Notes under the pieces: model-generated
What the model was told of the DNA's origin: nothing
What the model saw: the letters and a program-made list of their open reading frames with translations, nothing else
The model's database searches: none
Origin: a phage
DNA: 64,000 nucleotides
Strand: one strand, 5' to 3'
Assembly: GCA_024790105.1 (NCBI GenBank)
Contig: GCA_024790105.1_3053.1
Made by a program: the position numbers and the translations under genes
Shown: positions 2,102 through 43,132 of the stretch, one piece after another
Position numbering within the stretch: the stretch's first letter is position 1
How the letters are laid out: each line of letters starts with the position of its first letter

Positions 2102-2451
2102 TTAGAAAGGTCCTGGATGTCTTCTGCGAACTTGTTGAAGGAGTTGTTGATTTGTTTTTCAACCAATCCTGGCTTACGAGCCACCACATCCGCCTTCTTT
2201 GCATCTTTGCGCAGTTTTTCATTTTCACGCTCAATAGCAGCAATCGCCTCACGATTTTTATTATTCATCGCATCAATATAATTATACTGAATTCGCAAAT
2301 TATTTAATGCTAAGGCGTTTTCATTGGCCGTTTTTGTAATTTCTACAACAGACGTTTCTAATCTTTCTACCTTATTTTTTAAAATAATAGATGTTCCGCC
2401 AAATGCTATTACAAGTAATAGCAATCCAGCTGTAAAATTACTTACATGCAT
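2098..2451 (-). CDS. putative i-spanin (N-terminal TM, coiled-coil periplasmic domain)
   Basis: 117 aa; hydrophobic N-terminus LLLLVIAFGG followed by charged helical region; paired with lipoprotein ORF. Confidence 0.6.
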   Translation of the reverse strand: MHVSNFTAGLLLLVIAFGGTSIILKNKVERLETSVVEITKTANENALALNNLRIQYNYIDAMNNKNREAIAAIERENEKLRKDAKKADVVARKPGLVEKQINNSFNKFAEDIQDLSK

Positions 2452-2948
2452 AAAGTTTTAATAACCTCTATAATATCGTCTTGAGCAAGCCCGTTAATTA
2501 AAATATGATGTTCAGCCGGAGATTTAGAAATTTTAAAGCACGCCGCGACATCTTCTGCCATATCCGATGCGCTACGATTTGGATTACTAATTCCAAGACG
2601 ATGCTTTCCTGTCAAAGGATTAACGATGATATAGCATTTGCAGCTATTGATATGAACATTAGGTTGAGTCTGATTAATAAACACTTCACAATCATACTTA
2701 GCGAGTTGATTTTCTAAAAAGACTTTCATCTCCTCAACCGCATCAGGAAGCATATCACGGGATTGCTCAAGACGACGATTTCGATATTCTTTAATGGTCG
2801 TTTTCCGCTTGACTTGCTTAGCTAAATCTTTCTTAAGATCGGTGATATATCCAACTCGACGATTTCCTTTGAATACAGAAATCCCATCTGTAGTATCACC
2901 GTATGCTTCAACGACCATTTCAGTAGTAATAAGCTGCAAATCCATCAT
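2442..2948 (-). CDS. alc: probable Alc (inhibitor of host transcription on cytosine DNA)
   Basis: 168 aa, located between the pseT cluster and rnlA as in T4; length matches remembered Alc (~167 aa); identity by position and length only. Confidence 0.5.
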   Translation of the reverse strand: MMDLQLITTEMVVEAYGDTTDGISVFKGNRRVGYITDLKKDLAKQVKRKTTIKEYRNRRLEQSRDMLPDAVEEMKVFLENQLAKYDCEVFINQTQPNVHINSCKCYIIVNPLTGKHRLGISNPNRSASDMAEDVAACFKISKSPAEHHILINGLAQDDIIEVIKTLCM

Positions 2949-2976
2949 AAAGTCCTCATGTTATGTCAGTAAGATT

Positions 2977-3005
2977 ACTATAACACAACACGAGGGACTT
3001 GTAAA
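2977..3005 (-). promoter_or_regulatory. early sigma70-type promoter (-35 TTTACA, 17-nt spacer, -10 TATAGT on minus strand)
   Basis: minus-strand GTTTACA at 3000-3006 and TATAGT at 2977-2982, directly upstream of the 2948 ORF start. Confidence 0.55.
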
Positions 3006-3009
3006 CAGC

Positions 3010-4597
<1,588 letters not shown>

Positions 4598-40014: not shown

Positions 40015-40218
40015 TTAATTCATATTGCGTTTAATAACTTCAGCAACTTCTAGTAGTTCATCTTTAGTTGCGGTGTCGGATTGAATTTTATCTCTAATAT
40101 CCTTAAAGCGGTTTTTAAACTCTTCGGCTTCTCCCATATCGAAAAAGCGTTGAATGATTCTATATTCTCGGTGAACTGCTTTATCAAAAAGTTCTAAATT
40201 TACTTTATATGATTTCAT
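40015..40218 (-). CDS. hypothetical protein (rIIA.1-like)
   Basis: 67-aa ORF. Confidence 0.45.
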
Positions 40219-40272
40219 TTCAATATCCTTATTTGCCCAATTAATTATACCACATCCTTGTGGTAAAGTAAA

Positions 40273-40805
40273 CTACTGGCTCATCCATTCTTTACGAAGG
40301 TCAGCATTATCTCCCATGAGCATTTCAAAAAGCTCTTTCCAGTTCTCAGGAAGTTTAACAACATCATATACTGGGTTTTGAATCATTTCTTTATATTCAT
40401 CCCGCTGAAGTGAGCCCAATCCCTTGATGTATCGAATACTATGTTTAGGTAGAGCATCTTTAGCACTCTCATATTCAGCGACTGTATAAAACCATTCTTG
40501 TTTTTTACCTACCTGAGCGATGATTACAGGAGTTTTGACGAAGCGAATTCTTCCTTGTTCAAACAGTTCTGGCCAATTACTAAAAAATCCGAGCAGAGAA
40601 GGATAAATAGAACCTAATCCAATAATCTCTTAATTATGAGGTATTTCTATAGATAGCCCGAAGGCTATCCATCGTGATCTGCGTCTGTCATAATAGCGAC
40701 ATTCGCATAGTTCATTGAAGAGGATTTAATAGAACGACGAACATTGTTCTGCAATTTATATTTTTTCATATCAACGCTAGAAGAATCAATTTTTACAAAT
40801 TTCAT
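40273..40805 (-). CDS. 60: DNA topoisomerase II small subunit gp60, translated across a 50-nt bypass
   Basis: codons 1-46 (MKFVKIDSSS...TDADHDG) at 40668-40805, UAG stop, 50-nt gap, codons 47-160 (LGSIYP...RKEWMSQ) at 40276-40617; 46+114 = 160 aa. Confidence 0.85.
40618..40670 (-). promoter_or_regulatory. gene 60 translational bypass (hop) element
   Basis: minus strand GAU GGA UAG CCUUCGGGCUAUCUAUAGAAAUACCUCAUAAUUAAGAGAUUAUU GGA UUA: take-off GGA 40668-40670, UAG 40665-40667, UUCG-loop hairpin, landing GGA 40618-40620. Confidence 0.9.
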
Positions 40806-41604
40806 TATACACCTCATAGAACTTTTCATCAGGAATCCAACCGCGTTTAAATTCATTAAATGCTCGGCCGAATAATTTTGAATTCACAGTTATATTATTA
40901 ACTGATTTCCATTTAGCAACTCCCGTTCGTTTATAATGATCGGGGTCATATTTCGTGACGTACCATTCATATAAATTTGGTATTAATTTTACAGCCTCTG
41001 GATTTGTCGCTGATTTATTATACCATGGTTTCGCTTTTTCAAGTTCAGCTGCTTTTGCAGTAGCAGCAACAGTATTTCCAATACCAACTAATTTTTCAGT
41101 TTTAATGCGTGGATCATTAACATGAAGACGAAAAACTTCGCCCTTTTCATTTTTAAAGCATGTCATGCCTTTAATTCCAGGAAGCTTAACACCTTTATTA
41201 ACACCGCACCATTCCTTTGGGTTAAATGATCCTTTAATTAATAAGGCGCATTTACCCGATTTAATATTTCTCATTAAAACTTTATCTTTCATAAAGTTTT
41301 TTGACCATTCAGATACTGCTCTTTGATGGTAAATTCTAGCAATTTCATATAATTTACTAGAACGTAAATATTTTTCAGTGTTTAACATTCTATTCATCGC
41401 ATATGCCATTTCACGATTACGATGAATTTTATATAGTAGAAAATGTGCTAAAAAGTGTTCACGAAAAGTCAGTTTCACCAAATTTTCTTTATCATCAGAA
41501 CCTCCCATTGATCTTGGAAGGATATGATGAATTTCACCCTTAAATTTAGAAACGCGGGTTTTACCCCGCACTATTAAGTCATTATAGATTTTTTCGTAAT
41601 TCAC
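40786..41604 (-). CDS. mobA: HNH homing endonuclease MobA
   Basis: 272 aa; HNH motif EIHHILPRSMGGSDDKENLVKLTFREH; sits between genes 39 and 60. Confidence 0.8.
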   Translation of the reverse strand: MNYEKIYNDLIVRGKTRVSKFKGEIHHILPRSMGGSDDKENLVKLTFREHFLAHFLLYKIHRNREMAYAMNRMLNTEKYLRSSKLYEIARIYHQRAVSEWSKNFMKDKVLMRNIKSGKCALLIKGSFNPKEWCGVNKGVKLPGIKGMTCFKNEKGEVFRLHVNDPRIKTEKLVGIGNTVAATAKAAELEKAKPWYNKSATNPEAVKLIPNLYEWYVTKYDPDHYKRTGVAKWKSVNNITVNSKLFGRAFNEFKRGWIPDEKFYEVYNEICKN

Positions 41605-43132
41605 CTACTGTTATCCATTTACCATTAATCTGTACTTCATCATTTTCATTTACGATAATTGTATCGCCATTTAGCTCGAAAGTAAACCACTCGCCATCTT
41701 CTTTTTCTTCAAACGCTTTTTCACCAAGAACTAATCCAGTGATTGCGCAAATATCAAACAGTTCTTTGTTTTTAAGCATATCAGCATATGACATACCCCA
41801 ACTGTTGAGAACTTTACCACGCAATGGATAACCACCGTGAAGTTCTTTATCACGAACATCAATAAGATATCCGATAGCAGAATCACCCTCAGTCAAGAAA
41901 AGAGTAGTGTCAGCATCTTTACTACAAAGATTCGCTTTGATATGTTTATGAACCTTAGCTTTAGAAGCCTTTTTAGCTGCTTTAGTTTCTGCTGCTTTCT
42001 CTGCCGCCAATTTACGAGCCAAAGCAGCTTCAATAATCGGCATCAGAATTGCTTCATTATTTAGAATAGCGCGTGAAATCTTTTTAGCATCAAGTTGAAT
42101 ATGACTACGAATTTCACCGAATGGAGAAGTCAAACGCTCTTTAGTTTGAGAATCAAATCGCATGTTTTTCATATCACGAACAAACATAACGATAGTCAAA
42201 CATTCTTTAACGCGTGCTTTAGTTACATCAATTTTGAACTTACGTTTGATTTGTGGAATAAGGTCTTCACAAATATCATCCATAACACAGTCAATGTGAT
42301 GGCCACCATTCTTAGTGTGAATGTTATTCACGTAAGTTAATTGACGAAATCCATCCGGTGAACGACCAACCGCAATAGAGCAATTTTCCTGTTCTTGAAC
42401 GATAGCATGCTCATCATACTGGCGTGCATACTTCTTAAAATTGCCCTGAACCTTTTTACCGTTAAAGGTAAATTGAATATCAGGATAAACTACTGCAAGT
42501 GTCTGGAGACGATCTAGTGTAATGTCAAGATAAACTTGAGATAGCTCATTAGTTTCAAATGACATAAAATCAGGAATGAAAGTAACGCGAGTTCCTTTCC
42601 ATTTTCCAGGAATAGTTTCCCATGATTTATTTTCCATGCCGTTTGAACAACGAACTACAATATTATTTTGACCGTCGCCAGTTTCACCGACAAACATCAC
42701 AGAAAAAATGTTAGTTAAACTAGAACCAACACCGTTCATACCACCGGTGACACGTTCTTTATCATCACCAAAGTTACCACCCGCTTTTGGAATAGTCCAC
42801 GCAGCAACAGGACCAGGAATTTCTTCACCGGTAGGTGTTTTAACCATCGCCTGTGGAATACCGCGACCGTTATCTTCAACTGTTACTTGATTATTTTTAA
42901 TAGTAACATTAATTTTATTCGCGAATTTAAACTTAGTACGAATACCTTCATCTACCGAGTTATCGATAATTTCATCAATAAGCTTAACAAGACCAGGTAC
43001 ATACTGAACACTTTCCCATTTACCAAACAGAAAGCGCTCATGCATTTCATTAGCAGAAGAGCCAATATACATGCCGCTACGCTTTTTGATATGTTCAATA
43101 TCGCTCAGAATTTTAATTTCATTCTTAATCAT
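41582..43132 (-). CDS. 39: DNA topoisomerase II large (ATPase, GyrB-like) subunit gp39
   Basis: 516 aa from MIKNEIKILSD; GHKL ATPase motifs (DNGRGIP, GG.NGVGSS); recognised as T4 gp39. Confidence 0.9.
   Translation of the reverse strand: MIKNEIKILSDIEHIKKRSGMYIGSSANEMHERFLFGKWESVQYVPGLVKLIDEIIDNSVDEGIRTKFKFANKINVTIKNNQVTVEDNGRGIPQAMVKTPTGEEIPGPVAAWTIPKAGGNFGDDKERVTGGMNGVGSSLTNIFSVMFVGETGDGQNNIVVRCSNGMENKSWETIPGKWKGTRVTFIPDFMSFETNELSQVYLDITLDRLQTLAVVYPDIQFTFNGKKVQGNFKKYARQYDEHAIVQEQENCSIAVGRSPDGFRQLTYVNNIHTKNGGHHIDCVMDDICEDLIPQIKRKFKIDVTKARVKECLTIVMFVRDMKNMRFDSQTKERLTSPFGEIRSHIQLDAKKISRAILNNEAILMPIIEAALARKLAAEKAAETKAAKKASKAKVHKHIKANLCSKDADTTLFLTEGDSAIGYLIDVRDKELHGGYPLRGKVLNSWGMSYADMLKNKELFDICAITGLVLGEKAFEEKEDGEWFTFELNGDTIIVNENDEVQINGKWITVGELRKNL

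Follow-up and report, generated by a model that had tools for sequence, protein, structure and literature searches.

The hop within gene 60 of bacteriophage T4 is a classic exception to collinear decoding and has been described in a series of studies (Huang et al. 1988; Weiss et al. 1990; Samatova et al. 2014; Agirrezabala et al. 2017, PMC5462505; Klimova et al. 2019, PMC6551183). The feature is by now textbook knowledge and is annotated in the GenBank records of T4 and its relatives; in the T4 records, the 50-nt region is labelled as a 'non-coding translational bypass region'. The MobA elements that carry the bypass cassette measure 1097-1106 nt and encode an endonuclease of 269-279 amino acids that overlaps, out of frame, both ORFs of the split gene; clade 1 of these elements is characterized by 9 extra nt past the gap and by an invariant GGA/GGA codon pair, UAG, and UUCG, and the mobA gene is considered a pseudogene in laboratory T4 (Manning & Atkins 2022, bioRxiv 10.1101/2022.08.31.505936). 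For T4 and T2, MobA reportedly cuts target genes that lack the cassette, whereas genes with the 50-nt insert are protected (Bonocora et al. 2011, PNAS 108:16351). As of 2022, 14 close T4 relatives with the cassette were known, compared with 42 records in the phage collection searched here.

Homologous cassettes occupy the same position of the topoisomerase gene in the Proteus phages PM2/Pm5461, Salmonella phage S16, and Shewanella phage Thanatos-1. These are described in the literature with the codon pairs GGG/GGA, GGU/GGC, and GGU together with other loop variants, whereas the locus presented here carries the exact T4 clade 1 version; over the 131 nt of its bypass region, the nucleotide identity to the Proteus, Salmonella S16-like, and Shewanella cassettes is 73-81%. 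The byp elements in the mitochondria of Magnusiomyces capitatus, on the other hand, are unrelated in sequence, lack the Shine-Dalgarno element, and belong to another organelle and translation system; they are best regarded as analogous only.

The locus was found in a phage-derived stretch of 64,000 nt (NCBI GenBank assembly GCA_024790105.1, contig GCA_024790105.1_3053.1), hereafter called the window. Its backbone is that of another Tequatrovirus and not of T4 itself, with about 96% identity to the best phage record over 22 kb. We read the locus, with a probability of about 0.95, as a programmed translational bypass of the T4 gene 60 type. It would lie within a MobA homing-endonuclease element by which the gene for the large subunit of topoisomerase II is divided into genes 39 and 60. 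The features of gene 60 and its bypass signals are the following:

40812-40815, minus strand: Shine-Dalgarno sequence GAGG, 6 nt 5' of the gene 60 ATG (direct reading)
40665-40805, minus strand: first piece of gene 60, codons 1-46 and UAG (translation; identical to PDB 5NP6 chain C)
40716-40763, minus strand: core of the nascent-peptide signal, codons 15-30, including Y16, Q19, V22, R24, and S28 (residue roles from the literature)
40680-40707, minus strand: predicted 5' stem-loop, GCGAAUGUCGCUAUUAUGACAGACGC (minimum free energy and centroid structures; sequence identical to T4)
40650-40671, minus strand: take-off stem-loop of 9 bp with a UUCG tetraloop (folding)
40668-40670, minus strand: take-off codon GGA, Gly46 (direct reading and translation)
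40618-40667, minus strand: coding gap of 50 untranslated nt, starting with UAG and including the landing GGA (direct reading; insertion relative to T2)
40627-40629, minus strand: mini Shine-Dalgarno GAG, 6 nt (AUUAUU) 5' of the landing codon (direct reading; role from the literature)
40618-40620, minus strand: landing codon GGA (direct reading)
40537-40619, minus strand: predicted host-phage structure, a candidate for the published 3' stem-loop (forward slippage barrier) (folding; weaker than in T4)
40273-40617, minus strand: second piece of gene 60, codons 47-160 and stop, TOPRIM C-terminal region (translation; Pfam TOPRIM_C)

Both the anatomy of the locus and its reading-frame logic can be read directly from the window. 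Gene 60 opens with the ATG at 40805-40803 on the minus strand, and its first 46 codons translate to MKFVKIDSSSVDMKKYKLQNNVRRSIKSSSMNYANVAIMTDADHDG, ending at the UAG at 40667-40665 that directly follows the take-off GGA. The order on the minus strand is GAU GGA UAG, CCUUCGGG...AUUAUU, GGA (40620-40618), and UUA GGU. The codons for take-off and for landing match, so that the same peptidyl-tRNA can read both. The second piece resumes at the UUA at 40617, runs for 114 codons (40617-40276), and closes with a stop codon at 40275-40273; its frame differs from that of the first piece. The sequence-only reading that drew attention to this locus had placed the GAU GGA UAG take-off and AUUAUU GGA UUA GGU landing sites on the minus strand, spaced the GGA codons 47 nt apart with a gap of 50 nt when the landing codon is counted, and summed the two coding pieces to 160 codons. 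All of this holds true, with the two GGA codons at 40670-40668 and 40620-40618 and a total of 46 + 114 codons. A single copy of the 19-nt take-off motif was found in the window, where 0.01 would be expected, and in the alignment with T2-type genes the 50 nt form a clean insertion.

None of the signals encoded by the cassette is missing: the locus has the nascent peptide, both the 5' and the UUCG take-off stem-loops, the GAG, and the AU-rich stretch at the 3' side of the gap. The residues that published work on T4 gene 60 lists for the nascent-peptide signal (Y16, Q19, V22, R24, S28, Y33, M39, T40, H44, and D45, T4 numbering) are found in the first piece, whose 46 residues are those of the nascent chain (chain C) in the 70S cryo-EM take-off complex 5NP6. 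The earlier statement that the nascent-peptide region is conserved was correct in that the region is present as KYKLQNNVRRSIKSSS (residues 15-30), but understated, because it is identical to T4. The same reading had described a UUCG-loop hairpin behind the UAG. Such a hairpin is present, but it is not confined to the string after the stop codon: the take-off GGA and the UAG both lie within the 5' arm of the stem, which has the form UGGAUAGCC-UUCG-GGCUAUCUA. The hairpin is real, with a folding energy of -12.8 kcal/mol and a z-score of -4.85, and 0 of 200 shuffled sequences folded as stably. Upstream of the take-off site, the hairpin predicted at 40707-40680 takes the location of the T4 5' stem-loop. 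In its 3' part, the gap is AU-rich and contains no premature landing triplet; the sole other GGN in the gap is a GGG inside the take-off stem, and according to the literature this part of the gap is not scanned.

The identity to T4 is a matter of observation. The 3' end of mobA, the first ORF of gene 60, the gap, and the first 17 post-landing codons are 100% identical to T4, and the neighbour order rIIA, rIIA.1, 60, mobA, 39 is the same. In the phage GenBank collection, in which the distribution of the cassette was counted, the 131 nt around the gap match T4 at 131 of 131 positions (E = 7e-61). The same 131 nt are 100% identical in 29 records in all (including T4, T4T, RB55, and RB59), and the bypass region is at least 98.5% identical across all 42 carriers. 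The match to T4 and 28 further records means that the bypass region is not a chance occurrence. A sequencing error was also considered and is ruled out by the letter-for-letter identity to 29 independent records. A query of 651 nt around the locus matches 561 phage records, 42 of which cover it fully, mobA and gap included, while the remaining records (T2, T6, RB18, RB27, and others) align only from just past the landing site. When IMG/VR was scanned for exact matches to the 61-nt bypass string, 0 contigs were found. The locus is orthologous to T4 gene 60, and its orthology, its neighbours, the 100% identical cassette and first ORF, and the product alignment described below support the earlier claim that the programmed 50-nt bypass of T4 gene 60 is present and intact.

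Joining both pieces restores a conserved protein at the TOPRIM Asp-x-Asp-x-Asp-Gly site. The conceptual product of 160 residues aligns from 1 to 160 with T4 gp60 in the T4 topoisomerase II structure (PDB 8YO3), from which it differs in 4 residues (LQRDEYKE instead of LEKSEYRE). Its junction, DADHDG-LGSIYPS, is continuous with that of T4 gp60 and also with that of the uninterrupted homologue from a cassette-free relative (8YLU). Furthermore, the joined protein is matched by Pfam TOPRIM_C and spanned end to end by PHROG 7229 (E = 5.9e-81). The expected tryptic junction peptide is SSSMNYANVAIMTDADHDGLGSIYPSLLGFFSNWPELFEQGR.

An in-frame UAG after codon 46 and a downstream piece in another frame could also be expected of a broken gene, in which translation would stop for good at the UAG and leave the 114 codons behind as a decaying remnant; several database records indeed annotate the pieces as separate 'hypothetical proteins'. 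This explanation is nevertheless very improbable. The second piece stays open for 114 codons without a stop, and it differs from T4T by 15 synonymous and 4 non-synonymous codons, a pattern that points to purifying selection; the synonymous excess and the absence of a stop support translation of the second piece in that frame. In addition, the second piece codes for the conserved TOPRIM C-terminal region, its alignment with functional T4 gp60 is complete, and the arrangement is kept letter for letter in the 29 records. A conserved second piece might also be made separately, by internal initiation or by re-initiation after the UAG, which would yield two polypeptides. The GAG mini Shine-Dalgarno lies 6 nt before the landing codon, and 70S ribosomes are reported to be capable of sliding and re-initiation on polycistronic mRNAs (PMC11194080). 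The codons that follow the mini Shine-Dalgarno are, however, AUU AUU GGA UUA. Four codons 5' of the landing GGA, a UAA (40632-40630) closes the frame to which the second piece belongs, and between this UAA and the TTG at 40419 the frame contains no ATG, GTG, or TTG. The TTG, the earliest of these triplets in frame, lies 66 codons downstream, so that most of the second piece is unreachable by ordinary initiation. For the identical T4 sequence, moreover, the literature reports the GGA landing as the sole in vivo product detected by mass spectrometry. Separate initiation has an even smaller chance of being correct than a broken gene.

Two further explanations concern the RNA, and each of them is as implausible as separate initiation. 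In one, the 50 nt would be removed as a small intron to leave a continuous mature mRNA. Self-splicing group I introns are indeed carried by other genes of T4-like phages, but no Rfam family, intron or other, matched the region 40200-41700 at E <= 1, and 50 nt are far too short for a self-splicing intron. Nor does Rfam have a curated family for the bypass itself. According to the literature, the T4 insert persists in the mRNA and is bypassed by ribosomes, also in reconstituted in vitro translation. In the other, the UUCG hairpin would merely be a transcription terminator or an RNA stabilizer unrelated to recoding, roles in which CC-UUCG-GG hairpins recur in T4 transcripts (literature). The terminator scan of 40150-41000, however, returned no site, no T-run follows the take-off stem, and the hairpin lies inside the coding region, where it holds both the take-off codon and the stop codon. 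Programmed bypassing of the T4 type is therefore retained as the reading of the locus.

For the bypassing itself, its efficiency, and its mechanistic steps, we infer from published work on the identical T4 sequence, and we take the trans-acting components (tRNA2-Gly and ribosome) to resemble those of E. coli. Translation would begin at the ATG at 40805 and proceed for 46 codons, after which the nascent peptide would anchor the peptidyl-tRNA-Gly and inactivate the peptidyl-transferase centre. The top of the take-off hairpin would then form in the A site and block RF1 as well as read-through, and the peptidyl-tRNA would unpair from the mRNA while remaining in the ribosome. Powered by EF-G and GTP, a pseudo-translocation would be followed by sliding over the gap, with about 2 GTP spent per nucleotide. 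Pairing of the anti-Shine-Dalgarno with the GAG and re-pairing of the anticodon with the landing GGA (40620-40618) would capture the ribosome, and decoding would resume at the UUA (40617) to deliver a single gp60 of 160 residues. For the identical T4 sequence, the literature gives a bypass efficiency of roughly 50-60%. gp60 would finally join gp39 and gp52 to form topoisomerase II. As gene 52 is also present in the window (33879-32551), together with genes 39 and 60, all three topoisomerase subunits are encoded.

The mobile element around the cassette comprises the following features:

40609-41714, minus strand: MobA mobile element, about 1,106 nt (alignment with the cassette-free T2 and SholemSchwarzbard)
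40786-41604, minus strand: mobA, intact ORF for an HNH-type homing endonuclease of 272 amino acids (ORF; overlapping with the gene 39 end and the gene 60 start)
41582-43132, minus strand: gene 39, N-terminal part of the topoisomerase II large subunit (ORF; Pfam HATPase_c and DNA_gyraseB; aligns with T4 and T4T gene 39)

Within its boundaries, which follow directly from the alignment, the element contains the extra tail of gene 39 and mobA, then gene 60 up to codon 46, the 50-nt gap, and a further 9 nt. Gene 39 ends in an element-encoded C-terminal extension (FEEKEDGEW...GELRKNL*), which the mobA ORF overlaps by 20 nt and the stop codon; the overlap with the start of gene 60 is 20 nt as well. 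The window shares the block with T4T and PD112, whereas T2 and SholemSchwarzbard lack it. It is the already known MobA element of clade 1 (Bonocora et al. 2011; Manning & Atkins 2022): size and insertion site in the topoisomerase large-subunit gene are the same, the GGA/GGA pair, the UAG, and the UUCG loop are found, and the 9 extra nt past the gap read UUAGGUUCU where T2 has CUAGGAAGC. Nothing of substance sets it apart. MobA is identical to its T4T counterpart at 271 of 272 residues, the single change being S113N. This change corresponds to AGT to AAT at window position 41267 (mobA codon 113) and is the sole difference from T4T in the whole block (1 mismatch in 1,159 bp across 41726-40566). 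The assignment of MobA is based on its match to PHROG 655 'homing endonuclease' (E = 3e-57), because the Pfam HNH match is below threshold (20.1 bits vs a cut-off of 21.4). At the DNA level, the 50-nt insert would shield the element's own genome from cleavage by MobA.

Unlike in the T4 reference NC_000866.4, where mobA is annotated as fragments, the mobA of the window is an intact ORF. Compared with the window (41265-41472) and with T4T, the mobA of the T4 reference (locus 2319-3115) contains 11 additional bases, mostly G, and these split the gene into a 'defective' mobA fragment and 'gp60.1'. The extra bases may reflect either a real T4 pseudogene or old sequencing errors.

Outside the element, the window departs from T4 almost at once. 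The identity to T4 continues outside the element for only about 12 nt on the 5' side and about 43 nt on the 3' side, and the flanks differ from T4T by 26 mismatches in 675 nt upstream and by 27 mismatches in the 342 nt of the second piece (about 4-8% diverged). Because the backbone diverges this abruptly, a recent homing event of MobA can be envisaged.

The divergence also touches the region downstream of the landing site, where positions 40566, 40558, and 40551 carry substitutions relative to T4. These weaken the helix predicted at this place, for which -13.3 kcal/mol was calculated in the window vs -20.0 kcal/mol in T4T; this helix may be the published 3' stem-loop. PD112, which also carries the cassette, has the same bases as the window at all three positions and departs from it downstream only from 40540 on. 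The 3' stem-loop was reportedly defined in the 2014 paper of Samatova and coworkers. As a forward slippage barrier that helps the ribosome to land correctly, this 3' element is described in the literature as poorly conserved, encoded by the host phage, and possibly not sequence-specific. Since the post-landing sequence belongs to the host phage and not to the cassette, the term 'intact' applies to the cassette-encoded signals, and the fidelity or efficiency of landing could differ somewhat from T4.

Several other observations were made in and around gene 60. Codons of about 123-140 (40387-40438, minus strand) are densely substituted relative to T4, PD112, T2, and SholemSchwarzbard, giving rise to the LQRDEYKE string. 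This patch is 100% identical in CJY920 (PQ349265), which is also a cassette carrier, and about 94-99% identical in the cassette-free T-even phages BYEP01, vB_EcoM_F1, phiE142, and fPS-90, and it resembles a small tract of mosaic recombination. CJY920 furthermore has an insertion of ~900 nt right after the end of gene 60 (about 1850-2780), which the window lacks. By eye, this insertion encodes a second mob-like HNH protein (...HHILPKSMGGSNAKSNLV...), behind which the 3' end of gene 60 and the promoter region are repeated, and it would be another homing endonuclease beside the same gene. A promoter-like site (TTTACT-17-TATAAT with an extended-minus-10 TG) is located at 40272-40244 on the minus strand, directly after the stop codon of gene 60 and upstream of rIIA.1 (40218-40015), and is identical in T4, T2, and the other aligned relatives.

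Automatic annotation pipelines often split gene 60 into two 'hypothetical proteins'. In MH837626 (PD112, locus 3096-3628), for example, the gene is annotated in this way instead of as one joined CDS, with the notes 'Chain C, 70S structure prior to bypassing' and 'gene 60, partial' on the pieces. Several other records split gene 60 likewise, which makes this a recurrent annotation error. As an exception of this kind, the gene is worth annotating correctly, as one joined CDS.

The locus does not reveal new biology: it presents the T4 cassette verbatim in another Tequatrovirus, and such relatives as well as the mobile-element context have already been published. Its value is modest and consists of a further example of the MobA element in a diverged backbone and of a natural variant of the host-encoded post-landing region. 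It is possible, albeit rather doubtful, that MobA homing reached the phage only recently and that the phage is a natural variant in which the fidelity of landing or the efficiency of bypassing is altered. If this were true, the phage might help to test the importance of the 3' stem-loop in vivo.
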